Source: Sphingobacteriia bacterium (GTDB lineage: Bacteria; Bacteroidota; Bacteroidia; Bacteroidales; TTA-H9). Taken from it: a stretch of DNA of 64,000 bases. Under the pieces are notes generated by a model, which saw only the letters and a list, made by a program, of their open reading frames with translations, did no database searches and was not told the origin of the DNA. Made by a program: the position numbers and the translations under genes. Shown here one piece after another: positions 18,099 through 56,496 of the stretch. Each line of letters begins with the position of its first letter. The stretch's first letter is position 1. The stretch covers positions 9,325 to 73,324 of the forward strand of contig JAJTBW010000001.1 in NCBI GenBank assembly GCA_021286705.1. The letters run 5' to 3'.

Positions 18099-18100
18099 TT

Positions 18101-20238: not shown

Positions 20239-20271
20239 AATATCAATAGTTAATATAAAAAAGACATTAAA

Positions 20272-21279: not shown

Positions 21280-21282
21280 CAC

Positions 21283-22608: not shown

Positions 22609-22615
22609 TACAAAT

Positions 22616-40256: not shown

Positions 40257-40553
40257 ATGATAAACTCTGAGAAACCCAGTTTTTATAGTCATGGATCATA
40301 TGGTGCTACTCTCTTTGACCCCCGGTGGAGAGAGAAACGTCAACGGATTCTTCAACGTGATAAAAATAAGTGTGTGATATGTAATGCAATTGAGAATTTG
40401 CATGTTCATCATCGACAATACCATTTCTCTAAATCATTGAATCGGTTTAAGAACCCATGGGAGTATTCTGATTCTCTATTAATAACGCTTTGTGAATCTT
40501 GCCATGGGAGAGGACATAATAAGTATACAGTACCTACAAAATATATTAAATAA
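40257..40553 (+). CDS. Small HNH endonuclease-like protein (98 aa)
   Basis: CVIC...LHVHHRQYH...LITLCESCHGRGH forms a Cys4 + HNH-type motif. Confidence 0.65.
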   Translation: MINSEKPSFYSHGSYGATLFDPRWREKRQRILQRDKNKCVICNAIENLHVHHRQYHFSKSLNRFKNPWEYSDSLLITLCESCHGRGHNKYTVPTKYIK

Positions 40554-40561
40554 CACTAACA

Positions 40562-41140
40562 ATGGGACTATTTGATTTTTTAAGACGCAACAGTAATGCG
40601 CAGGCAAAAGAACTGCCACAAACAAACGAGACGAAGGAAGAAAAAGAGCTACCGGAAATTCCAAAAAACCTGTTTATTGAAGATAATGAGCCAGTAGAAG
40701 TTAAGCAGGAGGTTGCTGGTAGAACTGATGTAAATGGGATTGAAGCGATCTATGCCTTTTTGCAAAAGGATTATGAAGAAAAAGGGTATAATGATGCAAT
40801 TGTAAATCCAGATGATAGTCATCTTAAAGATAATATAAAGGTGATAAGGTATGATCTGGAGATGGTTGTTGAAAGGGTACTCAATTATTATGATAATCTT
40901 ATTCTTGATATAGAATCTAATATTAATGCCCGAGCTAAAGCTGGTTTGTTTGATTTAGTTGAGCAGTTGAAAGGGAAAAAGGAAATGGTTATAAAGCATA
41001 TCAATAAAGTTAAGGAGTTAAAGGAGGAGGCAAATGATGAGGAGAGTATTACTAATCGTGCTATTCTTTCATATAAAAATGGCTTTATGAAGGGATTATC
41101 TGCCTTAACACACACTAACTTATTAAATAAAAACCTATAG
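40562..41140 (+). CDS. Coiled-coil protein of unknown function (192 aa)
   Basis: It starts 8 nt after the HNH gene and has a K/E-rich helical sequence. Confidence 0.5.
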   Translation: MGLFDFLRRNSNAQAKELPQTNETKEEKELPEIPKNLFIEDNEPVEVKQEVAGRTDVNGIEAIYAFLQKDYEEKGYNDAIVNPDDSHLKDNIKVIRYDLEMVVERVLNYYDNLILDIESNINARAKAGLFDLVEQLKGKKEMVIKHINKVKELKEEANDEESITNRAILSYKNGFMKGLSALTHTNLLNKNL

Positions 41141-41141
41141 C

Positions 41142-42119
41142 ATGAGAAATATTTGGATTCGTTTTGGTTGCTTTTTAACAGGCTACAATTACAAACTTGT
41201 AAAGGCTTCAAGTGAGGTTGTTACAAAGACAGTCCTTAGGTATACAGCTGCTCTACTTATAATAATGCCAGTTTGGGCTTTTATAGGTGCTACTTTTACA
41301 CTTAGGTATCTCCACGGTACTATGTTATATGCAATACTTGCCGCCGCACTTATGGTCTTTATTGTTGTTCAGATCGAGCGCCAGATTATTCTGGTGGTTC
41401 ATGGGAAAAGTGGGTTTACCAAATCCTTTAGAATTGCTATCGGTATCGTTATGGCAATTCTTGGCTCAGTAATACTTGACCAATATATCTTTAAGGACGA
41501 TATTGATAAAACTAAGATCACTACAGTTGAAAAGGAAGTTCAGAGATTATTACCCATTAAGGTGAATGAGCTAAATAATCAACTTGTCGATCTTCAGGGT
41601 ACAATCAATACCAAAGAGGAAGAACGGATTAATCTCGTAAATGATATTAATAAAAGTCCTGTTATTGCATCATATCAGATTAAAACCGATCAGACAAAAG
41701 ATGAAGCATCAGGTAAGATGGTTTCTGTGGGTCGGCAAGTTACTACTCAGACTATTGAAAACCCGAAGATTAAACAGTTAGCTCCGTTGAATGATCAGAT
41801 TCAGAAGCTATATGAGCGAAAGGTCGAGCTTGAAAAGAAGATCATTGATGTTAGAGTCAGTATTGAAAATGAATTGAAATCAAAGACTGGTTTTCTGGAT
41901 GAGTTAAAGATTATGTTTGAGATTCTAACTAGTCATTGGATATCAATGTCTGTGTGGATTTTGTTATTTCTGTTCTTTTTGATGATAGAACTTTTCGTTA
42001 TAGTTTCTAAATTTACTGATGTTGACAGTGATTATGAGAAGATAATACTTTCATCAATGGAGAATAGGAAAATCATGATAGATAAGCATGCTAAAAGTCA
42101 GATTGATGGTTTATCCTAA
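41142..42119 (+). CDS. DUF4407-like membrane protein (N-terminal TM cluster, central coiled coil, C-terminal TM)
   Basis: It starts 1 nt after the upstream stop. Hydrophobic segments are at residues ~35-110 and ~255-285, with a long heptad-like middle. The family assignment is from memory only. Confidence 0.45.
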   Translation: MRNIWIRFGCFLTGYNYKLVKASSEVVTKTVLRYTAALLIIMPVWAFIGATFTLRYLHGTMLYAILAAALMVFIVVQIERQIILVVHGKSGFTKSFRIAIGIVMAILGSVILDQYIFKDDIDKTKITTVEKEVQRLLPIKVNELNNQLVDLQGTINTKEEERINLVNDINKSPVIASYQIKTDQTKDEASGKMVSVGRQVTTQTIENPKIKQLAPLNDQIQKLYERKVELEKKIIDVRVSIENELKSKTGFLDELKIMFEILTSHWISMSVWILLFLFFLMIELFVIVSKFTDVDSDYEKIILSSMENRKIMIDKHAKSQIDGLS

Positions 42120-42181
42120 TAGATGTTGACTTAGTTTATTAAAACGAAATGAAAGTTTAACCTTATAATATTTGATAGATA

Positions 42182-42388
42182 ATGGGTTATCCTACGAAGT
42201 CACAACGAAAAAAGAAATGTCCACGGTGTGGTAAATATGTTCCTACATATGCAACTGACTGTTATGATTGTGATTGGGATTTTGATTTTGTTGTTGGCAG
42301 TCAATATGTAGGTAAGAAGCGTTGCCCTAGATGTGGCGAAATGATACCGAATGAATGGAACTTTCATACTTGCGGATGGAAGTTTTGA
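42182..42388 (+). CDS. Double zinc-ribbon mini-protein (68 aa)
   Basis: Two CPRCG...C-x-x-C-type units are present: CPRCGKYVPTYATDCYDC and CPRCGEMIPNEWNFHTC. Confidence 0.5.
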   Translation: MGYPTKSQRKKKCPRCGKYVPTYATDCYDCDWDFDFVVGSQYVGKKRCPRCGEMIPNEWNFHTCGWKF

Positions 42389-42487: not shown

Positions 42488-43156
42488 GTGCGAAATATTA
42501 AATTAATACTGGTTGTTTTTAACACTGAACTGGAATCATTTGAGATGCCTGCCTTTAGGGGAGCCATAGTTGAAAAAGTGGGTCGGGAGAATGATTTATT
42601 TCATAATCATTTAACGTCGGATCAATATTACTATCGTTATCCTATGATCCAGTATAAACGATTGGGGAAGCGACCAGCAATTCTTTGTTTGGAGCAGGGT
42701 GCTGATGAGCTCTATAAGTTTTTTCAAAATAGAGATTGGACAATATATATTGGGTCACGTCAACTCGAAATGAAAATATTTAGTCTGGAGTTTCATCATT
42801 CTGATGTTGGAATTGAATCCGGGTTGACTAGCTATGAGATAAAAAATTGGCTTGGCCTCAATAGTCAAAATTATAATGCTTATCAGGAACTAGATAGCTT
42901 AGTTGACAGAATTTCTATGTTACAAAAGCTTCTGGTGTCAAATATTCTTAGCTTCGCTAAGGGAATAGGATGGGATGTTGATCAACAAATAATTGTTACG
43001 ATTAATCGAATCAATAATTCAAGATTAGTTAATTTTAAGGGGCAACAATTGATGGCGTTTGATCTTGCATTTAAGACAAATGCTGTTTTACCAGACTATA
43101 TTGGTTTAGGTAAAAGTGTGAGTATTGGTTATGGAACTGTAGTCAGAAAAAAATAA
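42488..43156 (+). CDS. cas6: Cas6-like crRNA-processing endoribonuclease
   Basis: GTG start, 222 aa. FRGAIVEKVG...LFHNH...YRYPMIQYK is followed by a C-terminal glycine-rich loop GLGKSVSIGYGTV. It is the first gene of the cas cluster. Confidence 0.6.
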   Translation: MRNIKLILVVFNTELESFEMPAFRGAIVEKVGRENDLFHNHLTSDQYYYRYPMIQYKRLGKRPAILCLEQGADELYKFFQNRDWTIYIGSRQLEMKIFSLEFHHSDVGIESGLTSYEIKNWLGLNSQNYNAYQELDSLVDRISMLQKLLVSNILSFAKGIGWDVDQQIIVTINRINNSRLVNFKGQQLMAFDLAFKTNAVLPDYIGLGKSVSIGYGTVVRKK

Positions 43157-43159
43157 ACT

Positions 43160-44626
43160 ATGCAGAAAAGATTTCTTTATGGAGCTTCTGTGCAAGGTAT
43201 ACAGAGCTTTATCTTTCAGACCAACAAGCTTAAAGAGATTGTTGGTGCCAGTGAATTGGTTGATAAAATTTGTACTGAATTTTTTCAAGATTCCTGCAAG
43301 TGTACCCCAATTGAGACGAACCTCAATTGGATCATTGGAGCGGCAGGTAATATCAAATATCTCTTCTCTAGTGAAGAAGAGGTAAAATCTGTTGTGTTAG
43401 ATTTTCCGAAAAAGGTGATGTTGATGGCGCCAGGTATTACCTTAAGTCAGGCTGTTGTTGAAGTTGAGGGTGATTTATCTGTAGATCACATCAGTGAACT
43501 AGAAGGGCTGTTGAAACTACAGCGAAATAGAATGGTTGATCCATTCTATTACGGTTATATGGCTACAGAGAGGAGTCGGCGAACCGGTGTTGTATCTTGG
43601 TCAAGCGGTTCTGATTATGAGGATTTACCATCTATTTTGAAAAAAGAACACAATGGAAAAGGGCTGCTAGAGAAAATTGGACATTCTCATCTTGAGAGGC
43701 AATTTGTTTTTGACATTGAAAGATTTGTTTCAAACGAGAAAAAAAGTTGGATTGCCGTCGTTCATGCTGATGGAAATTCCTTAGGAGTGGTAATTCAAAA
43801 ACTTTCAGCAGTACTTAAAGGCAAAGTTGGAAGTGAGATTGTGGAAAAGTATAGATCCTTTTCGCAAAACTTGGATATGGTTACTAGAGCGGCAGCCAAG
43901 GAGGCTTTTAGTGAGATTTTCAGTGATGAGATTAAAAATGGCACTGAGATTGGCTTTCGGCCAATTGTTATCGGTGGGGATGATCTAACGGTGATAATAC
44001 AAGCATCTAAGGCGGTTCCATTCACTCAATTATTTTTAGCCAAGTTTGAAAAGCTAAGCTCTGAGGTCTTTAAAGGATTCTTTAAATCAATAGGTCTGGA
44101 AAAGGAATGTTTAACAACCTGTGCAGGTATCTCTTTTGTTAAGTCTTCCTTCCCGTTCCATTATGCTGTTTCTTTAGCCGAGAATCTCTGCAAAAAAGCT
44201 AAAACGGCATCTAAGAATACTGATAGAGTGAACCCGCCATCTTCATTAGCTTTTTTTAAGGTGCAAAGTAGCTTTGTTGATGATCTGGATGAGATGATAA
44301 AGAAAGAATTGGTGTGTAAGAGTGATAGTTTATCTTTCTTTTATGGACCCTACTTCTTAAATCAAGAACCTTCAATTGCGCAACTCAGCAAAAAGGTTGA
44401 AAAATTGCGTGAAGAAAGAGCTCCGTCATCGCAGTTACGTCAATGGTTGACAGAACGTTATCATGATAAAGGTGCAGCAGATATGCTAATTGACAGAACC
44501 ATCGAGATATTGAGAAGAAAAAAACAGGGACATTTTATTAAAGATTTAGATCTTGAGTCATTAAAGGATAGTAATAATAAAGTTTGCCCGGTTTATGATT
44601 GGATTACGTTAAACTCTTTACAATAG
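43160..44626 (+). CDS. cas10: Cas10 (short, HD-less) with intact cyclase/polymerase palm motif
   Basis: The N-terminus FLYGASVQGIQSFIFQTNKLKEIVGAS is typical of Cas10 right after the HD position. Palm motifs are WIAVVHADGNSLG and PIVIGGDDLTVI (GGDD). Only 488 aa, with no H-D motif region. Confidence 0.8.
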   Translation: MQKRFLYGASVQGIQSFIFQTNKLKEIVGASELVDKICTEFFQDSCKCTPIETNLNWIIGAAGNIKYLFSSEEEVKSVVLDFPKKVMLMAPGITLSQAVVEVEGDLSVDHISELEGLLKLQRNRMVDPFYYGYMATERSRRTGVVSWSSGSDYEDLPSILKKEHNGKGLLEKIGHSHLERQFVFDIERFVSNEKKSWIAVVHADGNSLGVVIQKLSAVLKGKVGSEIVEKYRSFSQNLDMVTRAAAKEAFSEIFSDEIKNGTEIGFRPIVIGGDDLTVIIQASKAVPFTQLFLAKFEKLSSEVFKGFFKSIGLEKECLTTCAGISFVKSSFPFHYAVSLAENLCKKAKTASKNTDRVNPPSSLAFFKVQSSFVDDLDEMIKKELVCKSDSLSFFYGPYFLNQEPSIAQLSKKVEKLREERAPSSQLRQWLTERYHDKGAADMLIDRTIEILRRKKQGHFIKDLDLESLKDSNNKVCPVYDWITLNSLQ

Positions 44627-44631
44627 CAATT

Positions 44632-45243
44632 ATGAAAGATATTACTTATAGCATAAAGTTTTATTCACAATGGCATTGCGGCTCGGGCGAATCGCAAGGA
44701 GCCGATTTAGATGCGCTCGTGATTAAAGATAGACAAGGGTTGCCTTATGTGCCCGGAAAAACCGTTAAAGGGTTGGTTAGAGACTCTTTTTTGGAACTTG
44801 ATATAATTGGTTACTTCGACCACAAGGGAAAGGAAATTGAGATCTTTGGTTGTGGTTATGACTATAAACAGAAACCTAAAACTGACGATGGTAAAAAGGA
44901 GCAGGGAATAATCAACCAATCTAGGCTTTATTTTAGTAATGCTGTATTAAAAAGTGTTGTGAAAGATGAGATTGAAAAAGCATCACTCATCCCATTTTTA
45001 TTTAATAAAGTGACCAGAACCTCAATTGACGAAAAAGGAGTGGCAAATGAAATGTCATTACGCTCCATGGAGGTTACTGTACCAGTGGCCCTAACTGGTA
45101 AAATATTAAATGTGGAAGATCAGTATGTAGATAGTATTATAGATGCTATGAAGTTTATTAAACGATTAGGTAGTGGCCGGAATCGTGGACTTGGTAGATG
45201 TTCATTTGAGGTGTTGAATATATCAGAAAGGAGGACTATATGA
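44632..45243 (+). CDS. cas7: Cas7-family RAMP (Csm3/Cmr4-like)
   Basis: WHCGSGESQGADLDALVIKDRQGLPYVPGKTVKGLVRD is followed by the C-terminal G-rich loop RLGSGRNRGLGRCSF. The start is taken at MKDITY, just after the cas10 stop. Confidence 0.75.
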   Translation: MKDITYSIKFYSQWHCGSGESQGADLDALVIKDRQGLPYVPGKTVKGLVRDSFLELDIIGYFDHKGKEIEIFGCGYDYKQKPKTDDGKKEQGIINQSRLYFSNAVLKSVVKDEIEKASLIPFLFNKVTRTSIDEKGVANEMSLRSMEVTVPVALTGKILNVEDQYVDSIIDAMKFIKRLGSGRNRGLGRCSFEVLNISERRTI

Positions 45244-46697
45244 AGACTATAACATTTGTATGTAAGTTTTTAAGCGATGTGGTGTTGACTACTTCAGCTG
45301 CAACTGAAGGGGTTCATGCTTCTTTGGATTATATTCCGGGAGCTGTGTTCCTTGGTATTGTGGCTAAGAGGTATGACTCTTTCAAAGAACTAAATGCTGC
45401 ATATGATATCTTTCATAGTGGTAAAGTTCGTTTTTCTGATGGTCAAATATACCTGAATGGTCAACGCTCATTTAAGACGCCTTTACTTTGGTCAGCCCCA
45501 AAGTCAGAAGGGAAGAGTGGTGTTTTGACTTTTAGCGCAGCATGTAATAAGGAGCAGATGGCTGACAATCTTGCAAAGGGTCTGCAATTTAAGCAAATGC
45601 GAGATGGTTATTTTGTTTTAAATGGCAATGATGCTATAAAAGTGGAAATCGAGAAGCAATTCGCCTTAAAGTCGGCTCAAGACCGTGAGACCAGAAGAGC
45701 AAAGGAAGGGAGTATCTTTGGTTTTGAGTCTATTGCAGCTGGAACGACCTGGTGTTTTAGGATCGATATTGATTCAAGTGTTGAGCATCTTTCTGATAAA
45801 ATTGTAAAGGCTTTAATTGGAGTGCATCATATTGGGAAAAGTCGTTCTGCTCAATATGGGCTTGTGCAAATTGATGAGATTAAGCCCCTAGAAGTAAAGG
45901 CAGAGCTTTTTAAGGATCTATTTATTTATGCTGATTCTAATCTTTGTTTTTTCAATGAGTTCGGTTCCCCTACGTTTACGCCAACCGTTGAACAGCTAGG
46001 ATTTAAAAATATGAAGATAGACTGGAAGCGTTCTCAGATTAGAACTTCTAGTTATTCTCCATATAATCAACATCGAAAGAATAGAGACCAGGAGCGACTT
46101 TGCATTTCAAAAGGCTCGGTCTTTGTACTTACCGGAGAAACACCTTCTAATCTACCTAACAGGGCATTTGTTGGAGAGTATTTGAATGAAGGGTTGGGGC
46201 AGGTTTACTTGAATCCTTGGTTCCTTAAGTATGATGAGAAAACTTGTGAATTTGAGTTGAAACTTGGGAAAACTCAAGAACCTGATTTACTGCAAGATTA
46301 TGCTGCTGGTGAAGCGAATCGTTTTGATCAGGCTTTGTTAGCTTACTTACGGACTAAAAAGTCAGAAATCGGGGATAGTTTTTATATTACAAATGCTGTA
46401 AATGAATTTGTCACTAAAGCTAATGAATTTAGAGGGATCACGAAGAGTCAGTGGGGTGCGATAAGAAGTATTGCTGAGTCAAGTAAAGATGCAGATGAAT
46501 TAATGAATCAGTTATTCAATAATAGTAACGCTTATTTAACCCATGGAATTGCTGCAAATGACTGGAAAGAGTATGGTAGGTGCGATAAACTGAAGAAAAA
46601 TCTGCTAGAAGTAAAAGGGACGCTTAATTTAAATGAATATACTGTTCTTCTAGCTTCAGAAATGGCAAAGAAATCAAATAGAGAAAATTATGAGTAA
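45240..46697 (+). CDS. csx10: Csx10-like (Cas5-family) RAMP
   Basis: 485 aa. The N-terminus is LSDVVLTTSAATEGVHASLDYIPGAVFLGIVA and a later loop is IGKSRSAQYGLVQI. The position after cas10-cas7 is as in type III-D loci. Confidence 0.55.
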   Translation: MKTITFVCKFLSDVVLTTSAATEGVHASLDYIPGAVFLGIVAKRYDSFKELNAAYDIFHSGKVRFSDGQIYLNGQRSFKTPLLWSAPKSEGKSGVLTFSAACNKEQMADNLAKGLQFKQMRDGYFVLNGNDAIKVEIEKQFALKSAQDRETRRAKEGSIFGFESIAAGTTWCFRIDIDSSVEHLSDKIVKALIGVHHIGKSRSAQYGLVQIDEIKPLEVKAELFKDLFIYADSNLCFFNEFGSPTFTPTVEQLGFKNMKIDWKRSQIRTSSYSPYNQHRKNRDQERLCISKGSVFVLTGETPSNLPNRAFVGEYLNEGLGQVYLNPWFLKYDEKTCEFELKLGKTQEPDLLQDYAAGEANRFDQALLAYLRTKKSEIGDSFYITNAVNEFVTKANEFRGITKSQWGAIRSIAESSKDADELMNQLFNNSNAYLTHGIAANDWKEYGRCDKLKKNLLEVKGTLNLNEYTVLLASEMAKKSNRENYE

Positions 46698-48159
46698 GAA
46701 TAATTTGAGATATATAGCAAGGATCGTTGTTGAAGCAGCAACTCCTTTAGTTGTCGGTTCCGGAGAGGAGGGGTTAACAATTGACAAGTTAATTGCTCGT
46801 GATGTAAACGGACTCCCCATTATACCTGGGTCTGCATTGGCTGGTGTTTTCAGACATGAGTACAGTGCAACTAATGGTAGTGAAAAGGAGAATTATCTTT
46901 TCGGTTATCAAAGTAATAATAATGGAGAAGGGTCTAGAATATTCTTCACCAACGCCCATTTTGTTGGATCAAAGGGTGTTGTTTATGAGGGTTTTGAGCA
47001 TTCAGAAGAGATAAAAACGGATAAATTCGCTGAAGTATTCAAACACCTACCTATACGTCAACATGTCTCTATTGATCATAAAGGGGTAGCTAAGGATGCT
47101 GGTAAATATGATGAAGAGGTATTGTTTAAAGGTACGAGGTTCTGTTTTGAGGTTGAAGCGATCGATATTAACGAGGAAGATTGGTTGTCTTTGCTAAACT
47201 TGTTAAAACAAGATAGATTTAGAATTGGGTCTGGAACACGTAAAGGTTTTGGTGCTTTATCGGTTGTTTCTGCTTCTGCATACACCTATGATTTTACCAA
47301 GAAAACAGATGTTGATTTGTATCTGGATAAGAAGGCTTCCCTCAATTATCCGGTAAATTACTTTAATCCAATTGATTTAGTTGAATCAACCCAGGAGACA
47401 GATGAGTATGTTTTGAGAATTAAAGCTGATAATTTTTTCTTGTTTAGTTCAGGTTTTGCCTCCTCTGATGCCGATATTAATCAGGTTATGGAGGATATAG
47501 TTGTGTGGGATGGGCTTATTCCTGATTTTAAAAAGAATCAGGTGCTTATTCCTGCGACATCCATAAAAGGGGCGATCTCTCATAGGGTTGCTTTCCATTA
47601 TAACAAATTAAAGGGAATTTTTGCTGAAAATATCCATTCTTCGAATCTAATTACTGAGCTAGTAAAGGATGAATCTTATTTTAAAACGCTGATTGATCGT
47701 GAGCATTTTAATAGTTCATCACTTACTTCTTCTGAGTTATTTATAAACTTCAATCCGGCTGTTAGAGGTCTATTTGGCTATTCTGAAAATCCCTGTGATG
47801 ATAAAGACAAGAATCGGTATCAAAAGAATCGTGGTAATGTCATTTTTAATGATCTCTACCTCGATGCAAAGTGTGAGGATTTTAAGGTCTTTAACCATGT
47901 ACGGATCGATAGATTTACTCAAGGCTCTTACGCTGGAGCACTATTCAATGAAAAGGTCGCTGGCATTGGTGGTGAGTTTGATTTAACGATGGCAGTAAAT
48001 AAGAATATTCATTCTGATTATATAAAGTGTTTTGAAAAGGCGTTGCTTGATATTGTTAACGGTATTCTTCCTTTAGGTGGAAGAACAATGCTTGGTCATG
48101 GCATGTTTAGTGGAAAATTGTTCAAAAATAAAACTGAAATTAGTTATGATTCATTATAA
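46690..48159 (+). CDS. Fusion of two Cas7-like RAMP domains
   Basis: Two RAMP units are present. Unit 1 is VVGSGEEG...NGLPIIPGSALAGVFRH ... RIGSGTRKGFGALSV. Unit 2 is IPATSIKGAISHRVAFH ... LPLGGRTMLGHGMFSG. Confidence 0.7.
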   Translation: MSKNNLRYIARIVVEAATPLVVGSGEEGLTIDKLIARDVNGLPIIPGSALAGVFRHEYSATNGSEKENYLFGYQSNNNGEGSRIFFTNAHFVGSKGVVYEGFEHSEEIKTDKFAEVFKHLPIRQHVSIDHKGVAKDAGKYDEEVLFKGTRFCFEVEAIDINEEDWLSLLNLLKQDRFRIGSGTRKGFGALSVVSASAYTYDFTKKTDVDLYLDKKASLNYPVNYFNPIDLVESTQETDEYVLRIKADNFFLFSSGFASSDADINQVMEDIVVWDGLIPDFKKNQVLIPATSIKGAISHRVAFHYNKLKGIFAENIHSSNLITELVKDESYFKTLIDREHFNSSSLTSSELFINFNPAVRGLFGYSENPCDDKDKNRYQKNRGNVIFNDLYLDAKCEDFKVFNHVRIDRFTQGSYAGALFNEKVAGIGGEFDLTMAVNKNIHSDYIKCFEKALLDIVNGILPLGGRTMLGHGMFSGKLFKNKTEISYDSL

Positions 48160-48565
48160 GCAACATAATACGTTAGAAACGTTACCAAACAAAGAGTATC
48201 ATGGTTATTTATGGTTTGCCGACTGTGAATTTCCTGAGGTGATTGATGGTTTTCTATCGGGAAAACTCATGAGTAGAGATAATACATTTATTGTAGAAGG
48301 AAATCTGATGTCAAAGGATAATTTAACTTCTGTATCCATTAAACAGGTAGGATCTACGCAGTTTATAATGGAATTCAATCATAAGGATATTTCTGAAGAT
48401 AGAGCTTTGCAATTTAATGATTTAACCTATATTCCTCATAAATTGCCTGGTTTTAAAGAGATTGTTTTTAGACAGGTTTGGATTGCTGAGAGTGATGAAA
48501 ATTGTTGTAATTGGCCTACTTACAGACCAAAGTATCAGTATTTTGTAGAACTTAAAAAAGATTAG
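48146..48565 (+). CDS. Small protein inside the effector operon (139 aa); occupies the position of cas11/csx19-type genes
   Basis: The ATG at 48146 overlaps the upstream stop by 14 nt. I recognise no motif, and the sequence does not look strongly helical. Confidence 0.4.
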   Translation: MIHYKQHNTLETLPNKEYHGYLWFADCEFPEVIDGFLSGKLMSRDNTFIVEGNLMSKDNLTSVSIKQVGSTQFIMEFNHKDISEDRALQFNDLTYIPHKLPGFKEIVFRQVWIAESDENCCNWPTYRPKYQYFVELKKD

Positions 48566-48567
48566 TC

Positions 48568-50883
48568 ATGGTTTTAATGAAAGCACCTTTTAATTTTGTC
48601 CCATTAAATCAACATGTCTACTATCCTGATTGGGCAGAACAAGTTTCTCAAGATATTCCTTTCAGCGATGGTTTGAGCGGCCAAATAGAGTTGACTATCG
48701 AGGCGGAGAGTCCTATCTATATTAGAAATGGTTTCTCGGTTAATGAGTTAAAATCTGAGAATAAATCTGGGGATTTTGTCTCTAATAGTTTTTGGAATTT
48801 TAATGGTCAGTATTTTATTCCTGGCTCAAGTCTCAAAGGAATGATTCGCAATATTTTTGAGATTATAAGCTTTAGTAAGATGCCAACTGATCCAAGAATG
48901 CGTTTTGCCAGAAGAGACATGTTAGCAAATAATAGGAGTAATATTTATCCTCTTAAGAATATTACGGAACAAAAGGAAATTCGCTGTGGGTGGTTGTCTA
49001 TGAATGATAATTCTTATGTAATTAAAGATTGCGGACATCCATATAGAATTAGTCATAAAGAGCTTGATAAAATTTTTGGTTCTGAGTTATTTGAGAATCA
49101 TTTTTCCAAAGTAAAAGGCAAGGATTTGTCAAAGCCTATAGACCGCTTAAATCCTAAGATGGCTAAATTTAAATATAAACTCATTGAAAAAAATGGATTG
49201 AGCAAATATTTGAAAGGCTCTTTTGTAAAAGATGAAGCCAATAGAAAAGCTACTTACGAGGATGGAAAAGGGAGTCGTGGTGAAATAGTATTTACTGGCC
49301 AGCCAGATAGATGGGATTTTCCTAGAAATAAAGATAGCAAAGGAAAATTTAACGAGTTTGTGATTTTTGAAGATGAGCTTGGTTCAGACTATAAGATTTC
49401 GAGAGAGGTCTTTAATCAATACAACTTCTTTATGGATGATTCTGAAGATTGGCTTTATTGTCTATCCAAGATAAAAGAGGGTAATAGGTATCCTGTTTTT
49501 TTTCGTTTCGAATCAGAAGAGTCAGAAGAGGCTAAGAAAGTTAAAGACTTTGGATTGGCATTTATGTATCGCCTTCCATATATAAAAGGGGTCTCACAGT
49601 TAGTCGATGAGTTTCAAGAGCCCAATGGAATTGATTTAGCTGAGGCTGTTTTTGGATTTACTGAACTTAAGAAAGTTAAACTAGAAAGGAATAAGAAGGT
49701 TGTTGAGAAAATAAATGGGTCCTTAAAATCAAGGGTTCATTTTGGGCATGCCTTTGCTGAGGCAAATTCTATTACTCTGGCGGATCAGATTACAGGATGT
49801 TTGGCGGGACCTAAAGCGTCTTATTATCCCATTTATATTAGGCAACGGGAGGTGGATCCGGATAAAGGAAAGTATTACCAGACTTATGATAATGGCGTGA
49901 TTAGTGGCTGGAAGCGATATCCCTTAAAGGAGAGTGTTCAACTATTACCTAAAATCGGAGATAAAATGGATACGACCTTCGTTCCTGTTGAAAAGGGGGC
50001 GAAGTTTTCGGGAAAGATTACTTTTCATAATTTACGTCCGATAGAATTGGGATGTTTGTTATCTGCAATAACTTTTCACAACAATCCAGAGTACCGTCAC
50101 TCTTTAGGGATGGCAAAACCTTATGGCTATGGAAAAGTAAAGATTGAATCCAAGTTGAAGGTTTTTGATGAGAATAGTCTAGATATTGATGGTTATCTGG
50201 TAGCCTTTGAGAAGAAAATGAATGAGTTCTTAGCAACTAAGAGGTTGGGTAAGTGGTTTTCAACAGAGCAGATTGAAGAGTTATTTGCGATGGCCGACCC
50301 CAAGCGGGTTAATAAGGAAAATTCTGATCAACTTAACTATCTTAACCTTGGTGGAGGCAATGCTGGAGCAAATGAATTTCTGAAGATTAAAAAGCAAAAC
50401 GATTTCCTACATCCTTTTACCTCTGTATTTAAAGGCGGGACTTCAAGAGTTAGTCCGTTGGATTCTTATTTAGCTCGTGAAAAAGCTAATCAGGAAAAAA
50501 TGGAAGAGGAGGCTCGGGAAGCTGAGAAGCGTATGATTGAGGAGCAAGAGATGCAACGTAAGCTTGCCGAACAAGATCGATTAGATAATAAAAAACAGGA
50601 ATACCTTGAACAAGGGCTGGCTCTTTTTCTTAATTCACCTTCGTTTAGCCGATTTTTGGATAAGTGTGATGACTATAAAAAGAAGTTACAGCTAGAGGTT
50701 ATTCCAGAAGATCAACATGGTATAATCATACAAGTCATTGAGTCTTTCAATAAAACCGACAAGGAATTTTTAAAAGAAACAAGAAAAGGTGGCTTCGAGA
50801 AAGGTCGATCTTGGCTTCGATTGCAAAAGCTAATAGGAGAGAAACCTGCTTATAAGATGTTTCAATTGATCTCCAATCCATAG
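48568..50883 (+). CDS. Large RAMP protein (Cas7/Csm5-like, TIGR03986-like) with insertions and a K/E-rich coiled-coil C-terminal extension
   Basis: The N-terminus is APFNFVPLN...LSGQIELTIEAESPIYIRNG...FIPGSSLKGMIRN, and the G-rich loop is SLGMAKPYGYGKVKI. The C-terminal ~170 aa begin EKANQEKMEEEAREAEKRMIEEQEMQRKLAEQDRL. Confidence 0.65.
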   Translation: MVLMKAPFNFVPLNQHVYYPDWAEQVSQDIPFSDGLSGQIELTIEAESPIYIRNGFSVNELKSENKSGDFVSNSFWNFNGQYFIPGSSLKGMIRNIFEIISFSKMPTDPRMRFARRDMLANNRSNIYPLKNITEQKEIRCGWLSMNDNSYVIKDCGHPYRISHKELDKIFGSELFENHFSKVKGKDLSKPIDRLNPKMAKFKYKLIEKNGLSKYLKGSFVKDEANRKATYEDGKGSRGEIVFTGQPDRWDFPRNKDSKGKFNEFVIFEDELGSDYKISREVFNQYNFFMDDSEDWLYCLSKIKEGNRYPVFFRFESEESEEAKKVKDFGLAFMYRLPYIKGVSQLVDEFQEPNGIDLAEAVFGFTELKKVKLERNKKVVEKINGSLKSRVHFGHAFAEANSITLADQITGCLAGPKASYYPIYIRQREVDPDKGKYYQTYDNGVISGWKRYPLKESVQLLPKIGDKMDTTFVPVEKGAKFSGKITFHNLRPIELGCLLSAITFHNNPEYRHSLGMAKPYGYGKVKIESKLKVFDENSLDIDGYLVAFEKKMNEFLATKRLGKWFSTEQIEELFAMADPKRVNKENSDQLNYLNLGGGNAGANEFLKIKKQNDFLHPFTSVFKGGTSRVSPLDSYLAREKANQEKMEEEAREAEKRMIEEQEMQRKLAEQDRLDNKKQEYLEQGLALFLNSPSFSRFLDKCDDYKKKLQLEVIPEDQHGIIIQVIESFNKTDKEFLKETRKGGFEKGRSWLRLQKLIGEKPAYKMFQLISNP

Positions 50884-50917
50884 GGTTCTTTTAAATGTTT
50901 TCTGTCTGTTCGTTATA

Positions 50918-50963
50918 TGATCAGCATCTATAGAAAACTTCAGTTTTCTATAGATGCTGATCA
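50918..50963 (+). terminator. Perfect 21-bp-stem hairpin (loop TTCA) followed by a T-rich tract; terminator or attenuator between effector genes and CARF genes
   Basis: TGATCAGCATCTATAGAAAAC (50918-50938), TTCA, GTTTTCTATAGATGCTGATCA (50943-50963), then AAGCTTTATGTTTTTCTTTT. Confidence 0.6.
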
Positions 50964-50993
50964 AAGCTTTATGTTTTTCTTTTAGTTGATTTT

Positions 50994-52094
50994 ATGAAGG
51001 ATAAATCTCTCATTCGAAATGTTGTGATGCTTTTGGTCTCAGATCAACCAGTGTCAAATCTATTGTTTTGTAGAAATCTTGACTTGGAAATTGATGAAGT
51101 CGTGCTTTTTACGACCACAAAGATGGAGCGAAGTGGAGTTACAGATAATCTAATAAACGTACTTAACTTAACCTGTGAAATAAAGAGAATAGTTATATCT
51201 AATACAGATTATCTGGATGCCTATTCTTTATTAAGTGAGATTAAAAGTGATGGCCAGAGGCTTCTTGTGAATTTAACTGGAGGTAATAAGATTATGGCTA
51301 TGGCTGTTTATGATGCTTTTAGAGATCATGGTGGGTGTCGTTTTTATTATAGTCCGGTGGGTGGTGATTTATTCACATGTTTCAATGACCCAGATGCGTC
51401 ATTTTCTATTAGAAGGAATCTAAATGTATCTGAGTATTTGAACTCATACGGCATTGGTTTTAACCATTCTGAGAATTGTATCGCTAACTTTAAGGAGGCG
51501 GAAATGATCATGCGGTTACACCAAAAATATAAATTTAATAGAAGAAGAGTGCTGAATTATTTGGAGTCCAATAAAAGTGATTATGTCGAGTTCAAGAAGT
51601 ACTATGAAGGGGGCTGGTTTGAGGAATATTTGTATTATTCTATAAAAAAGCACTTGAATTTAGGCGATGATGAGATCTATTTAGATGTTGAACTGATAGC
51701 TGATCAAGAGACTGGTAGAGTAGTTAATGAGTTAGATGTAGCATTTGTATATAAGAGTGATCTGTATATTATAGAAGCTAAAGCGAATGTTACATCAAGA
51801 GGCGTATATAATATTAACCCACTTGAAAGCAGTCGTCCAAAGGTTAGTGTGGCCGACGACAAGCCGTTAGGTCAATACTTGTATAAGCTTGCTGCTGTTA
51901 ATAAGTTACTTGGTATACGTACTCAATGTGTATTAGCTACCTTAACAGATCTTCGTTCTGGTGGTGAGGACTTTAACAGAACACTTCAAGACAGAATGAA
52001 AATTCTTGATATTCATCATTTAATTGATAGATATGAATTTATTAACGATGAAAATTTTAGTAAACGAATAAATTATTTAGTAAAAAACTTTTAG
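50994..52094 (+). CDS. CARF + PD-(D/E)xK nuclease, Card1/Can2-like (DUF1887-type), copy 1
   Basis: The N-terminal Rossmann-like CARF is VMLLVSDQPVSNLL...VNLTGGNKIMAMAV. The C-terminal nuclease motif is ELDVAFVYKSDLYIIEAKAN. Confidence 0.7.
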   Translation: MKDKSLIRNVVMLLVSDQPVSNLLFCRNLDLEIDEVVLFTTTKMERSGVTDNLINVLNLTCEIKRIVISNTDYLDAYSLLSEIKSDGQRLLVNLTGGNKIMAMAVYDAFRDHGGCRFYYSPVGGDLFTCFNDPDASFSIRRNLNVSEYLNSYGIGFNHSENCIANFKEAEMIMRLHQKYKFNRRRVLNYLESNKSDYVEFKKYYEGGWFEEYLYYSIKKHLNLGDDEIYLDVELIADQETGRVVNELDVAFVYKSDLYIIEAKANVTSRGVYNINPLESSRPKVSVADDKPLGQYLYKLAAVNKLLGIRTQCVLATLTDLRSGGEDFNRTLQDRMKILDIHHLIDRYEFINDENFSKRINYLVKNF

Positions 52095-52096
52095 TT

Positions 52097-53302
52097 ATGA
52101 AAAAACTTTTGGTTAATTTAATTAGCGAGCAGACCATTCCAGTTTTGCTTTCTATAAATTCATTTCCCGAGGCGAAGCATCATCTGTTTATTACAACTCG
52201 AAAAATGGAGGATGCTGAGACAGGACGGCGAAGTTTATGGTTAAAAAAGGCAGCTAATTTGGATCCTGTTAATGTTGTGGTGACAGAGGTTTTGGCTGAT
52301 GATTATAATGATATTATGGCTAAGCTCGGATCTGAGCAGATGGAGGATTATTATAAGGAGTTTGATGAGATTATTGTTAATATTACAGGTGGAAATAAGC
52401 TGATGTCTATCGCTGTGAATGAATTTTTTAAGGGAAAAACAGAGAATATCTACTATTTGCCAATTCATAATGAAACATACGTTATTCCTAATAACCCATT
52501 GTATAAGAAGACAGTTAACTCATTGCTGAGTATCGAGACCTATTTAGGTGCCTGTGGTTTGCATAAGACTGATAAACGTGTTTCCTTTAAGCAACCACTT
52601 AACTCTCCTCGGGCATTTACATTTGAGGAGTTGGAGCGACTATTAGGTGAGTTTTTGGTAAATGAGGAGCTAAGAGCCAAGAGTGAGCGGTTAAGATTAC
52701 TGTTTAGAGCAGATGATTCTGTATATCGATTTAAAAAGGACAAATTGGATTATTCTGTTTTGCCGGAAGCAGATGAGATAGATGAGATATTAACTAGTTT
52801 TGGGTTCTCACCTGATGAAATGATTGGGAAGAAGACGGTGGATTTTATCACGGGTGGTTGGTATGAAGAATATGTATACTATTTAGTTTGCAGTATGTTT
52901 GAGAAGGAGGGATTAGTTCCTGTGGGTTATGACTTAGAAGATTTTGTGAAAATTGGAGTGCAATTATCACCTAAAGCTGGTGATGAATTTAAGGCTAAGT
53001 ATTTTACTTCTAATGACCTTGACGTTATATTCATTCTTAATTCGAAGCTATATGTTATCGAATGTAAAAGTGGCGGAATGGATAAGACGTATGACTATAA
53101 TAGAACTGTATATATGCAAAGTGCTCTGAGGAAATATTTTGGACTGAGTGTTACTTCAGTTTTATGTACATTGTCTTCTGTAAGCGAGGAAAATATGGAG
53201 AAAGCGAAGGTTTTTGGAATAAAAGTATTAGACAAAAGTTATTTTGCTAATTCTATCAATGAAAAAAGCATAAAAGATTTTTCACAATCAAAGAGAGATT
53301 AA
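52097..53302 (+). CDS. CARF + PD-(D/E)xK nuclease, Card1/Can2-like, copy 2
   Basis: The CARF is LVNLISEQTIPVLL...VNITGGNKLMSIAV and the nuclease motif is DLDVIFILNSKLYVIECKSG. It starts 2 nt after copy 1. Confidence 0.7.
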   Translation: MKKLLVNLISEQTIPVLLSINSFPEAKHHLFITTRKMEDAETGRRSLWLKKAANLDPVNVVVTEVLADDYNDIMAKLGSEQMEDYYKEFDEIIVNITGGNKLMSIAVNEFFKGKTENIYYLPIHNETYVIPNNPLYKKTVNSLLSIETYLGACGLHKTDKRVSFKQPLNSPRAFTFEELERLLGEFLVNEELRAKSERLRLLFRADDSVYRFKKDKLDYSVLPEADEIDEILTSFGFSPDEMIGKKTVDFITGGWYEEYVYYLVCSMFEKEGLVPVGYDLEDFVKIGVQLSPKAGDEFKAKYFTSNDLDVIFILNSKLYVIECKSGGMDKTYDYNRTVYMQSALRKYFGLSVTSVLCTLSSVSEENMEKAKVFGIKVLDKSYFANSINEKSIKDFSQSKRD

Positions 53303-53682
53303 TGCTAATCAATATATCAAATCATTCATGTACTAGTTGGGGATTAGATCAGTTAAATACTGCCAAGAGCAAGTGGAGTCGTGTGGTTGATTTATTAAGT
53401 CCGATGATTCCACCCGAAGCAGGTGTTAATGATCTAATCCCTGTCGTAAATGATTATGTCAAAAAGGTTCAAGAAATTGCAAAACTGGAGAAAGAGGGCA
53501 CTGTATTTATTCATGTTATGGGCGAATTAACATTTACATTTATGGTGATAGCAAAGCTTCAGCGGGAAGGATTTCAATGTGTAGCTAGCACGACCAAGCG
53601 GGATGTTATCGAAGAGAATGGAATTAAACTTAGTGAGTTTAAATTTGTTCAGTTTCGAGTATTTCCAAAATTCGATGAATAG
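53302..53682 (+). CDS. Small CRISPR-linked protein of unknown function (126 aa)
   Basis: It overlaps the upstream stop by 1 nt (TAATG). The sequence is LINISNHSCTSWGLDQL...FIHVMGELTFTF. It might be Csx20-like, but I cannot verify that. Confidence 0.45.
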   Translation: MLINISNHSCTSWGLDQLNTAKSKWSRVVDLLSPMIPPEAGVNDLIPVVNDYVKKVQEIAKLEKEGTVFIHVMGELTFTFMVIAKLQREGFQCVASTTKRDVIEENGIKLSEFKFVQFRVFPKFDE

Positions 53683-54025: not shown

Positions 54026-55009
54026 ATGGAGCTAATATTAAATAGTTTTGGTACAACTTTATCGAGGGAGAATGACCAATTTGCAGTGTCACATGCTGAT
54101 GGTAAACAATTGATTCATCCTTCAGAAATCAAATGCATTTCTATAAGTAAAGGGGCAAGAATAACTTCTGATGCCGCACTGCTTGCTATCGATAATGAGA
54201 TAGATGTACTGTTTATTGATAAAAAGGGGATGCCAAAAGGGCGCATCTGGAGTTCAAAATATGGTTCAATCAGTACAATAAGAAGAAAGCAGTTAGATTT
54301 TACCTTCAATGAGATGGCTGTAGAATGGATAAAGGATGTTATACGCCAGAAGTTAGAGAATCAGATTGCTTTGCTTTATAGTAGTTGCCCTGTTGATCGA
54401 TTAAATGATGTCTCTTTCAATAGATTATTGAATCGGATAAAAGACTATTCGGTTAAGATTGAAGGTCTTAATGGTGGGATTGTTCAGGACGTAGCTTCCT
54501 CGTTAAGGGGCTGGGAAGGTGCTGCAGGAAAGATATATTTTGAGACGTTATCAACGTTTTTGCCAGAAGAGTATAAGTTTCAAGGAAGGAGTCAAAATCC
54601 TGCTGTTGATTTGTTCAATGCATTATTAAATTATGGTTATGGGATATTGTATGGCAAGATAGAGGGTGCAATGATCAGAGCAGGGATTGATCCTTATGTA
54701 GGTGTTTTTCATCGTGACGATTATAACAGGCCAGTGTTGGTCTTTGATGTGATAGAGTTATATAGAGTCTGGGTGGATTATGTTGTTTTTAATTTATGTA
54801 AACAGAAGGCTATCGGGGAGGAGTGCTATAGTAGGCGCCCTGATGGTTCCGTTTGGTTGGAGATTCTTGGAAGAAGAATTCTTATTCAATCGATCAATGA
54901 CTATTTTGATGAAGTTATACTCATTAAAGGACTTGAAAGAACGCGACTTACGCATTTGGAATTGTATTGTCAGAATCTAGCTCAGTATTTTTTAAAAGGG
55001 AAGTGGTAA
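54026..55009 (+). CDS. cas1: Cas1 integrase
   Basis: 327 aa with EGAAGKIYF, NALLNYGYGILY and GIDPYVGVFHRDDYNRPVLVFDVIELYR, the conserved E/H/D catalytic region. Confidence 0.9.
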   Translation: MELILNSFGTTLSRENDQFAVSHADGKQLIHPSEIKCISISKGARITSDAALLAIDNEIDVLFIDKKGMPKGRIWSSKYGSISTIRRKQLDFTFNEMAVEWIKDVIRQKLENQIALLYSSCPVDRLNDVSFNRLLNRIKDYSVKIEGLNGGIVQDVASSLRGWEGAAGKIYFETLSTFLPEEYKFQGRSQNPAVDLFNALLNYGYGILYGKIEGAMIRAGIDPYVGVFHRDDYNRPVLVFDVIELYRVWVDYVVFNLCKQKAIGEECYSRRPDGSVWLEILGRRILIQSINDYFDEVILIKGLERTRLTHLELYCQNLAQYFLKGKW

Positions 55010-55010
55010 T

Positions 55011-56018
55011 ATGTTAATGCGTGGAAAAAATATAACGGCCAGTGGTGACCCGTTACAACCGATTGAATTAACTCACTTTTTTAGATCTATTGTCAATCCT
55101 ACAGAGGAGCTTATACAACGAATAGATCAATTACGCATAGTGAGTACCTTGGATCAGGTGAGGTATCGTCAGCTAAAGACAACCTTGCCCTATGTGGTTT
55201 GTGGCAGTTATCATCCTGCTATCAGGAAGACCTCCAGTTTTGCATCCATTGAGTGTTTTATCCTCGATTTTGACCATCTAAACAGTAAAAATATTGAAAT
55301 AAAAGATTTCAAGGCGAAGATGCGAGAGGATTCCAGAATCTTGATGCTTTTTGAATCGCCGAGTGGAGATGGATTAAAAGTGTTGTTTAAATTAGATGAA
55401 AAATGTTATGATCCTGGTGTATATAGGCTGTTTTATAAACTATTCGCAAAGAGCTTTTCTATAGAATATGGTTTAGATCAAGTAGTAGATGAGCGGACAA
55501 GTGATGTTACTAGAGCTTGTTTTTATAGTTATGATAGAGATGCATGGTTAAATGAGGCAGTCACTCCAATAAAAATATCGAATTACCTTAATTTGGAAGA
55601 GATAAGTCAGGTAGATGCTTTATTGAAAGAAATTAGAAACGATGTCAAGGAGGAAAAGAAGGAGGAACGTGAGGCAAAAGTAAGTGCATCAGCTGATACA
55701 TTAAAGGAAATAAGATCCATGCTCCTACCTAAGGCTAGGCCGATTGAGAAGGATGTGTTTGTTCCAGAAGAACTTAAGGGGCTTGAAGAAATGATTAAGG
55801 TTAGATTGGAGAGTACCCCGATTAAGGTCGTGTCTAGTGAATCTATCCAATATGGCAAGAAGGTGAAATTTGAAATGGAGACCGTAAAGGCTGAGGTAAA
55901 TGTATTTTATGGCAAGAAGGGTTTCTCGGTTGTTTCAACAACTAAGACAGGGACAAATCCGGAGTTTGCACAGTTATGTAAGGAATTGCTTGAAGATCTG
56001 TTGATACATCGGAGTTGA
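55011..56018 (+). CDS. Primase-polymerase (AEP superfamily, VirE-N/BT4734-like) encoded between cas1 and cas2
   Basis: The DxD motif is FILDFDHL, the SxxGxG motif is FESPSGDGLKVLFKL, and a further motif is DVTRACFYSYDRD. It starts 1 nt after the cas1 stop and ends just before cas2. Confidence 0.65.
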   Translation: MLMRGKNITASGDPLQPIELTHFFRSIVNPTEELIQRIDQLRIVSTLDQVRYRQLKTTLPYVVCGSYHPAIRKTSSFASIECFILDFDHLNSKNIEIKDFKAKMREDSRILMLFESPSGDGLKVLFKLDEKCYDPGVYRLFYKLFAKSFSIEYGLDQVVDERTSDVTRACFYSYDRDAWLNEAVTPIKISNYLNLEEISQVDALLKEIRNDVKEEKKEEREAKVSASADTLKEIRSMLLPKARPIEKDVFVPEELKGLEEMIKVRLESTPIKVVSSESIQYGKKVKFEMETVKAEVNVFYGKKGFSVVSTTKTGTNPEFAQLCKELLEDLLIHRS

Positions 56019-56031
56019 TTTGTGTTTTTTT

Positions 56032-56496
56032 ATGAAGAAGAGTAGCGAATTGACTTTTGTTCGGAAGGTACTTGCTTTAAAGAAGGCAGGTATTGGTATT
56101 AGTCCTCCGATTATTCAAGAACAGGAGGAGTTAATTTCTTTAGAAGAGCGATGTCAAAAGTTATTAGGTATCGTAAGAGAAAGGAGGAAGTCAACAGATA
56201 TGGTTTTCTTTGTGATGTATGATATTGAAAATGATAAAGTTCGCCGATATGTTTCAAAGTACTTGGAGAAAAAGGGATATTTAAGAGTCCAGAAGTCGGT
56301 CTTTCTTGGCAAAGCAGATCGAAATGAGTTTAATAAAGTAGGCGATACTTTGAGAAAGGTGAATGAGATCTATGAAAATGAAGATAGTATAGTGCTAATC
56401 CCGGTTTCTAGCGATGAGTTGACAAGCATGGAGTTGATAGGGAAAGATGTGAATATAAAAGCCTATTATGATAAACCTGGAACTCTGTTTTTTTAG
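56032..56496 (+). CDS. cas2: Cas2 with ~55-aa N-terminal extension
   Basis: The core MVFFVMYDIENDKVRRYVSKYLEKKGYLRVQKSVFLG is a typical Cas2 beta1-alpha1-beta2. The ORF opens at TTG 56020 and the first ATG is at 56032. Confidence 0.85.
   Translation: MKKSSELTFVRKVLALKKAGIGISPPIIQEQEELISLEERCQKLLGIVRERRKSTDMVFFVMYDIENDKVRRYVSKYLEKKGYLRVQKSVFLGKADRNEFNKVGDTLRKVNEIYENEDSIVLIPVSSDELTSMELIGKDVNIKAYYDKPGTLFF

Follow-up and report, generated by a model that had tools for sequence, protein, structure and literature searches.

A complete subtype III-D CRISPR-Cas locus from a Bacteroidota bacterium, with a Cas10 lacking the HD domain and genes for predicted cyclic tetra-adenylate signalling

A 64,000-nucleotide (nt) stretch of contig JAJTBW010000001.1 (GenBank assembly GCA_021286705.1, positions 9,325 to 73,324 of the forward strand), which comes from a Sphingobacteriia bacterium of the Bacteroidota and is referred to here in its full length as the window, carries a CRISPR-Cas locus of type III at positions 42488-53682. 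Judged by its profile matches, the locus is a complete but ordinary subtype III-D system. Its Cas10 has no HD domain and intact catalytic motifs, its effector genes are arranged in a conserved architecture and they are followed by genes for two CARF nucleases of the Card1/Can2 type and for a probable Csx20 protein. It is highly likely that the locus defends the cell by cyclic tetra-adenylate (cA4) signalling to the Card1/Can2 proteins together with Cas7-dependent RNA cleavage, with Csx20 resetting the response. The closest characterised relative is the III-Dv complex of Synechocystis sp. PCC 6803 (PDB 8S9T/U/V/X; Schwartz et al. 2024, PMC11026444).

Gene content and subtype

Open reading frames (ORFs) were taken to start at the first start codon following an in-frame stop, and the 10 proteins of the locus were typed with PADLOC, Pfam and NCBIfam profiles. 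A further 10 flanking proteins were scanned with Pfam and PADLOC profiles, making 20 surrounding proteins in all. The ORF map places the seven effector genes on the plus strand as a tightly packed block, and within each gene block of the region neighbouring genes overlap or are separated by gaps of 1-5 nt. An earlier reading, made from the letters alone and called here the sequence-only reading, had listed a cas6-like gene, cas10, cas7, a csx10-like gene, a double Cas7, a 139-amino-acid (aa) ORF and a 771-aa RAMP, and this order is confirmed by the map. The genes of the locus, with the E values of their main matches, are as follows.

42488-43156, plus strand: cas6b, endoribonuclease that processes the precursor of the CRISPR RNA (crRNA), 222 aa (Pfam Cas6b_N 6.6e-26, Cas6b_C 1.3e-36; PADLOC Cas6 3.3e-53)
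43160-44626, plus strand: cas10 of the III-D clade, 488 aa (PADLOC Cas10d 5e-141; Pfam Cas10 palm2 2.1e-13)
44632-45243 from ATG, or from TTG at 44599, plus strand: stand-alone cas7, Csm3-like (PADLOC Cas7_IIId 2e-59)
45240-46697, plus strand: csx10, the III-D Cas5, 485 aa (PADLOC Cas5_IIId 4.8e-134)
46690-48159, plus strand: cas7-2x, a fusion of two Cas7 domains, 489 aa (PADLOC Cas7_IIId 1.5e-136)
48146-48565, plus strand: csx19, 139 aa (NCBIfam TIGR04423 3.7e-18; PADLOC Csx19 8.2e-21)
48568-50883, plus strand: cas7 with a large insertion, TIGR03986 family, 771 aa (TIGR03986 1.3e-80; PADLOC Cas7_IIId 2e-162)
50994-52094, plus strand: Card1/Can2-type CARF and PD-(D/E)xK nuclease, paralogue a, 366 aa (CARF_Card1 4.8e-23, Card1_endonuc 4.6e-10)
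52097-53302, plus strand: Card1/Can2-type CARF and PD-(D/E)xK nuclease, paralogue b, 401 aa (CARF_Card1 1.9e-26, Card1_endonuc 9.1e-16)
53302-53682, plus strand: csx20, predicted cA4 ring nuclease, 126 aa (PADLOC Csx20 1.4e-27)

On profile scores, the matches of the effector genes are far beyond chance. Type III is indicated by the Palm domains of Cas10, whose Cas10-Cmr2_palm2 match reaches 51 bits against a Pfam cut-off of 27, and subtype III-D by csx10, which matches the PADLOC Cas5_IIId profile across its full length, and by csx19, which lies above its NCBIfam cut-off. The sequence-only reading had called the module III-D-like and proposed profile typing as a check; PADLOC puts every gene in III-D. 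The 139-aa gene that it described as an orphan is in fact Csx19 (TIGR04423 66 bits against a cut-off of 40), a signature gene of III-D. The locus is thus a further member of a well-populated III-D family that is covered by existing profiles.

Cas10 has no HD domain and an intact cyclase site

The sequence-only reading proposed that Cas10 begins after the position of the HD domain and keeps its Palm motifs, and this is borne out by the strings themselves, with FLYGASVQGIQSFIF at residues 5-19, HADGNSLG at 202-209 and GGDD at 272-275. The cas10 ORF begins 4 nt past the cas6b stop codon and already uses the earliest start codon that follows an in-frame stop, which leaves no room for an HD domain further N-terminal. 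None of the 10 locus proteins gave an HD-domain match with Pfam, NCBIfam or PADLOC profiles, nor did any of the 10 neighbours with Pfam or PADLOC profiles. Cas10 does contain the dipeptide 'HD', at about residues 436-437, but this falls in the C-terminal helical domain and outside the conserved positions and was discounted as a nuclease motif. The PADLOC Cas10d match, which places the protein in the III-D clade, spans profile positions 2-435 of 441.

When the protein was compared with the PDB by phmmer, the sole solved-structure match was 8s9t_C (3.4e-31), which is the Cas10 chain from the III-Dv complex of Synechocystis, in an alignment that starts at chain residue 19 and takes in the HADGN and GGDD motifs. 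An AlphaFold2 (AF2) model built with 49 homologues (pLDDT 91.6, pTM 0.91) has the architecture Palm1-D2-Palm2-D4, where D4 is the C-terminal helical domain, with nothing ahead of Palm1. The model, also a check that the sequence-only reading had called for, agrees with the loss of the HD domain and the presence of both palm domains. In a Foldseek search with this model the four III-Dv Cas10 entries rank top, with an E value of 4e-27 and a query TM-score (TMq) of 0.80 for 8s9t_C. Each residue of D204-G205-N206 and of G273-D274-D275 is 100% conserved across 81 aligned family members. By these criteria of sequence the GGDD cyclase site of Palm2 is intact in this Cas10, as is the metal-binding Asp upstream of it, and the protein itself has no DNase domain. 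The outcomes that the sequence-only reading had named as speaking against it were another subtype, an HD domain encoded elsewhere in the complex and inactive palm residues; what was found is III-D typing, none of the 20 surrounding proteins with an HD domain and invariant palm residues.

A Cas10 of this kind is usual for the subtype. In a survey of 1113 type III loci an HD domain was present in only 3% of III-D Cas10s, and it was concluded that III-D acts mainly through cyclic oligoadenylate (cOA) signalling (PMC11229360). The Synechocystis III-Dv Cas10 is also without an HD nuclease, and the purified complex activates Csx1 via cOA in a manner that needs cognate target RNA and intact Palm residues (PMC11026444).

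Relatives and conservation of the layout

A scan of a genome collection with peptides from the single Cas10 sequence gave 114 pattern matches and no true relative, whilst an alignment-based scan of the collection, with one genome per species, succeeded. It found 355 genomes with a Cas10 relative, mostly Bacteroidota, the other hosts being Calditrichota, Desulfobacterota, Planctomycetota, Fibrobacter and a Methanolobus metagenome-assembled genome (MAG). A protein search returned at least 2758 homologues, of which the best 120 are all 486-569 aa long with full-length coverage, and in 80 related loci that were fetched the Cas10 ORFs measure 448-566 aa, with a median of 505. The description of this Cas10 as unusually short is therefore misleading, since its length is the norm of the family in the 80 loci and among the best 120 homologues, and since the survey figure of 3% makes the lack of an HD domain the rule.

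The genes cas10, cas7 and csx10 are adjacent in 73 of the 80 related loci, and the full order cas10-cas7-csx10-cas7-2x-csx19-cas7-insertion is present in 54 of them; the loci without it are mostly cut by contig ends, and a few are without a detectable csx19. In the large majority of the loci that reach that far csx19 occupies the same position, and in most of the related loci cas6b lies immediately 5' of cas10. An intact, near-identical locus, with proteins 94-99% identical, is present in three other metagenomic assemblies.

CARF nucleases and the predicted Csx20 ring nuclease

Both CARF paralogues, with an N-terminal CARF and a C-terminal nuclease domain, exceed the cut-offs that Pfam sets for PF23400 and PF09002, keep the GGxK and D..ExK motifs and match the PADLOC CARF and PD-(D/E)xK profiles at about 1e-45 each. 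Their catalytic residues align with those of Card1. In this combination of a CARF_Card1 domain, a PD-(D/E)xK domain and both motifs they resemble Card1 from Treponema succinifaciens (6WXW) and Can2 (7BDV). Against the PDB, paralogue a, in which the CARF motif reads GGNK and the nuclease motif D...EAK, matches Card1 6wxw at 1.3e-18 and Can2 7bdv at 6.9e-13, and paralogue b matches Card1 6wxw at 1.1e-28 over nearly its full length and also Can2 7BDV. In contrast to the Card1 and Can2 used for comparison, the locus has two such genes in tandem, whose products are only 22% identical. The C-terminal half of the nuclease domain of paralogue a is diverged and partly inserted, and the Pfam match of this domain covers profile positions 5-67 of 136. 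The two paralogues may form a heterodimer, an arrangement suggested by their 22% identity, by the motifs kept in both and by the conservation of the pair in at least two distant relatives. The pair recurs in Algoriphagus formosus (L014 among the related loci) and in a Bacteroidetes MAG (L031).

Card1 and Can2 are classed as nucleases of DNA and RNA that cA4 activates and that have no ring nuclease activity of their own (PMC11229360; PMC12409355), and 66% of loci of the Can1/Can2 kind also encode an extrinsic ring nuclease (PMC12409355). The present locus would share this typical pairing. The sequence-only reading saw no obvious ring nuclease, which was wrong on the profile evidence, as a probable Csx20 is encoded at 53302-53682, with a PADLOC match over profile positions 1-113 of 114 and an NCBIfam score below cut-off that is considered below. 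The Csx20 family is the most frequent extrinsic ring nuclease and its degradation of cA4 has been confirmed experimentally (PMC12409355). Co-occurrence was counted in the 40 related loci whose sequence extends 3 kb or more past the effector genes on the downstream side: a Card1-like gene is found in 18, a Csx20 gene or domain in 19 and both in 13. The statement that there is no Csm6/Csx1 HEPN gene holds, with no HEPN domain in Pfam, NCBIfam and PADLOC scans of the locus proteins.

In five related loci (L006, L021, L027, L053 and L079) the Csx20 match lies within a protein of 517-623 aa. These large proteins are consistent, at the level of profile matches, with the PADLOC CARF-HEPN-Csx20 fusion profile, and so with an effector that has a built-in ring nuclease.

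Backbone subunits

The stand-alone Cas7 is 203 aa long when read from its ATG, the start chosen by the gene callers on sibling contigs, whilst the longest ORF starts from the TTG. Its D27 (D38 in TTG numbering) aligns with the catalytic D26 in the Cas7 domain of the Synechocystis Cas7-Cas5-Cas11 protein and is 94% conserved in the related loci. Cas7-2x has Pfam RAMPs matches at two stretches. As a single sequence it missed 8s9t_D, the Synechocystis Cas7-2x, in the PDB search; with a family profile this chain became the best PDB match (1.9e-23), and D32 and D262, both 93% conserved in the related loci, align to Synechocystis D33 and D246. Mutation of Synechocystis Cas7 D26, D33 or D246 abolishes individual cleavage sites (PMC11026444). 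The 771-aa Cas7 scores 272 bits on TIGR03986 against a cut-off of 161, and its PDB sequence matches are to Cas7-11 proteins and 8s9t_E.

Csx10 scores only 14 bits on the NCBIfam equivalog TIGR02674, which has a cut-off of 177, and therefore belongs to a different Csx10 sub-family from the one that model describes. A profile of 40 homologues matches residues 252-634 of 8s9t_A, the Cas5 part of that chain (1.9e-15). The AF2 model of Csx10 (pLDDT 86.5) is formed of a RAMP region (1-345) that a disordered linker (351-357) joins to a C-terminal domain of five helices (361-484), and Foldseek ranks 8s9x_A/8s9t_A top with about 558 aligned columns, compared to about 350 for plain Cas5 proteins. C-terminal fragments from the window and from four homologues matched only Cas5_IIId profiles of PADLOC and no Cas11 profile. 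On the strength of the model the five-helix domain is probably a fused Cas11-like domain. The cas7 and csx10 genes are two distinct ORFs, which lie in different frames and share 4 nt, and the same split is seen in 73 of the 80 related loci.

Csx19 is a structural core subunit of the solved III-Dv complex (PMC11026444). Although Csx19 is present in 8S9T, phmmer with the protein from the window gave no meaningful match among PDB sequences, the two being too diverged.

Proposed mechanism

The complex stoichiometry, the cA4 messenger, the nuclease substrates and the reset step of the following scheme are modelled on characterised homologues. Cas6b would cut the array transcript into crRNAs, each of which would be assembled with one copy each of Cas10, Cas7, Csx10 with its probable Cas11-like tail, Cas7-2x, Csx19 and the Cas7 with the insertion. 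A foreign transcript complementary to the crRNA, and unpaired with the 8-nt repeat-derived tag, would activate the Palm domains of Cas10, which would then make a cyclic oligoadenylate, most probably cA4. Binding of cA4 to the CARF domains of the two Card1/Can2 nucleases is expected to unleash non-specific degradation of DNA and/or RNA. In parallel, the three Cas7 aspartates would cut the bound RNA at 6-nt steps, thereby switching Cas10 off, and Csx20 would degrade the leftover cA4 to reset the cell. The sequence-only reading had likewise placed immunity in signalling to CARF nucleases and in Cas7 RNA cleavage, not in a Cas10 DNase. This is the best-supported mechanism, because there is no HD domain, the GGDD motif is intact and two CARF nucleases lie downstream, and it has a precedent in Synechocystis (PMC11026444).

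Several points weigh against this scheme. The messenger species is predicted from nothing but the families of the effectors and the ring nuclease, and the Csx20 match to NCBIfam CAS_Csx20 (NF040559; 7e-07) is 29.6 bits, below the 70-bit cut-off. The Cas11-like assignment of the Csx10 tail stands on the AF2 model and the length of the Foldseek alignment, without a sequence match. The spacers matched nothing in the rest of the window at up to 3 mismatches, so no self-target was seen, and one 33-nt sequence common to two spacers had no exact match among viral contigs; with no target found in these two comparisons, activity in the host is unproven. Finally, a related III-D2 Cas10 makes SAM-AMP (S-adenosylmethionine-AMP) and not cOA (PMC13294483), and the III-D label alone thus leaves the product unfixed.

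Alternative explanations

The last of these points leads to a different messenger altogether. The III-D2 Cas10, which is also without an HD domain, synthesises SAM-AMP and SAM-AMP2 (PMC13294483), a III-B system of Bacteroides fragilis uses a messenger of this kind, and the host of the present locus belongs to the Bacteroidota, where SAM-AMP signalling was first described; the CARF proteins might then respond to such a compound in place of cOA. However, no CorA, NrN/DEDD phosphodiesterase or SAM lyase is found among the 20 proteins scanned, and SAM-AMP signalling was rejected for want of CorA and of the SAM-AMP degrading enzymes. The Cas10 motif is moreover GGDD and not the GGDE of the III-D2 enzyme, the only PDB sequence match of Cas10 is the cOA-making III-Dv protein, and Card1/Can2 and Csx20 are both families tied to cA4. 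A SAM-AMP messenger is accordingly considered very unlikely. That the messenger is a cOA with a different ring, cA3 or cA6, is also improbable, if somewhat less so: ring size is unreadable from the Cas10 sequence and Csx20, at 10-fold higher concentration, also degraded cA3 (PMC12409355), but Card1 and Can2 are classed as cA4-activated (PMC11229360).

It could also be argued from the lack of any spacer target in the comparisons above that the locus is decayed or dead for signalling, so that it cleaves RNA only or does nothing. This is hardly credible given that all its ORFs are intact and tightly packed, that the catalytic residues are invariant, that the array has 100 identical repeats with diverse spacers alongside an adaptation module, and that the same locus persists intact in the three other metagenomic assemblies. 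The preferred scheme thus remains cA4 signalling combined with Cas7 cleavage.

Comparison with characterised systems

The operon follows the Synechocystis III-Dv order of cas10, cas7, cas5-cas11, cas7-2x, csx19 and cas7-insertion. Both systems have a Cas10 without HD and with GGDD, three catalytic Cas7 aspartates and Csx19, and in both two Cas7 domains are fused as Cas7-2x and a further Cas7 contains a large insertion. The cOA signalling to a CARF effector that is known from Synechocystis is predicted here from the genes. They differ in that Cas7 is a separate gene here, whereas Synechocystis has a single Cas7-Cas5-Cas11 polypeptide, and in the position of cas6, which is upstream of cas10 here and downstream in the Synechocystis system. 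The Cas10 proteins, of 488 and 575 aa respectively, are about 23% identical in the structural alignment. The effectors are Card1/Can2 with Csx20 here as opposed to Csx1 and Csm6 in Synechocystis, and the hosts are a member of the Bacteroidota and a cyanobacterium.

The signature genes csx10 and csx19 and the separate cas7 are shared with III-D1 systems such as the Sulfolobus SsoCsm complex (PDB 8BMW). In III-D1 the four cas7 genes and cas11 all stand alone (bioRxiv 10.1101/2022.06.13.496011), whereas the present locus has a fusion of two Cas7 domains and another Cas7 with a large insertion. The SsoCsm Cas10, at 829 aa, is a much weaker Foldseek match to the Cas10 of the window (E 6.7e-13, TMq 0.65). 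With III-D2 (PDB 9WXH; PMC13294483) the locus shares a short Cas10 without HD, fused Cas7 domains and the III-D lineage. That system, however, has no csx19 and is characterised by a Cas7-5 fusion, Cas7x3, a GGDE motif, SAM-AMP/SAM-AMP2 and a CorA effector (PMC13294483). As neither Cas7x3 nor the Cas7-5 fusion, CorA or GGDE was found here by motif check and Pfam/PADLOC scans, the locus is not III-D2.

A signalling-only design like that of III-Dv, in which Cas10 has no HD domain, the Cas7 fusions are fixed and in single copy and Csx19 is present, is the common form of III-D in Bacteroidota and several other phyla. The present locus is a clean and full example, with effector complex, two Card1/Can2 proteins, a probable Csx20, acquisition genes that include a PrimPol and an array with 100 repeats or more, and is a possible reconstitution target for comparing fused with unfused III-D complexes. 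Its main value lies in correct annotation, and current understanding is unchallenged. Mildly new are the unfused Cas7, which lies beside a Cas5 that is probably fused to Cas11, and the presence of two diverged Card1 paralogues in tandem. Two bolder ideas, which we regard as doubtful, are that the paralogues form an obligate heterodimer acting as an asymmetric cA4 sensor-nuclease, an unfused counterpart of monomeric Can1, and, independently of this, that the split Cas7 and Cas5-Cas11 represent a natural intermediate between III-D1 and III-Dv on the path to the single-protein Cas7-11.

Adaptation module and CRISPR array

The effector locus is followed by an adaptation module and an array.

54026-55009, plus strand: cas1 (Pfam Cas_Cas1 4.4e-61; PADLOC Cas1b 1.3e-98)
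55011-56018, plus strand: PrimPol-like gene (BT4734-like_N 1.2e-12; PADLOC PrimPol 1e-21)
56020-56496, plus strand: cas2 (CRISPR_Cas2 1e-14; PADLOC Cas2b 1.6e-19)
56620-64000, plus strand: CRISPR array of 100 repeats, which runs past the end of the window

The three genes at 54026-56496 (plus strand) form the known CRISPR-associated primase-polymerase arrangement. Cas2 is 158 aa long from a TTG start, with an N-terminal extension of about 60 aa ahead of a Cas2 domain at 61-134, and long Cas2 ORFs of 166-172 aa also occur in L047, L058 and L075, each with a PrimPol. The array contains 100 identical repeats of 37 nt (CTGAGGAACCCTCTTCCAGAATAATAAGGATTAAGAC) and diverse spacers of 33-41 nt. Spacers 4 and 5 have 33 nt in common and therefore represent overlapping acquisitions from one protospacer region. 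Cores of the CCCTTCTTT type are common to several nearby spacers.

Genomic neighbourhood

Upstream of cas6b, on the opposite strand, lies a gene for a possible regulator.

39094-40107, minus strand: WYL-domain protein (Pfam WYL 6.3e-09; PADLOC CRISPR-associated WYL 1.4e-18)

This protein is possibly a transcriptional regulator of the III-D locus, although the link is weak. WYL homologues adjoin cas6b on the opposite strand in several related loci (e.g. L012, L015, L022, L046 and L063). Between the WYL gene and cas6b is a cassette at 40257-42388 (plus strand) encoding proteins of 98 and 192 aa, a DUF4407 membrane protein (325 aa) and a 68-aa zinc-ribbon ORF. Searches with the 98-aa, 192-aa and DUF4407 proteins found no homologues among the 80 related loci, but the near-identical sibling contigs (L081-L083) do carry the cassette, which may be an insertion with an accessory or defensive role. 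A scan of the whole window with Rfam at gathering thresholds gave zero matches.

A RecD/PIF1-like superfamily 1 (SF1) helicase is encoded further upstream, at 37619-39061 (plus strand; PADLOC PDC-M16A 1.6e-118). Homologues of this helicase lie directly 3' of csx20 in 8 related III-D loci (L012, L014, L033, L035, L039, L043, L072 and L080), which suggests that it is a conserved accessory gene of this III-D clade.

At 14311-24196 (plus strand) a cluster of eight genes encodes a sigma-70 region 4/DUF1492-like protein, a peptidase C39-like protein, a dynamin-family GTPase, an Hsp70-like protein, a DO-GTPase1/2 Double-GTPase pair, a 441-aa protein with no match and a second dynamin-like GTPase. The resemblance of this cluster to an NTPase-based conflict system suggests that the window is a defence island. 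Two IrrE/M78-peptidase genes, one of them fused to HTH_3, are found at 26098-27228 and 28989-30104 (plus strand) and are typical of the regulators of mobile elements or defence systems.

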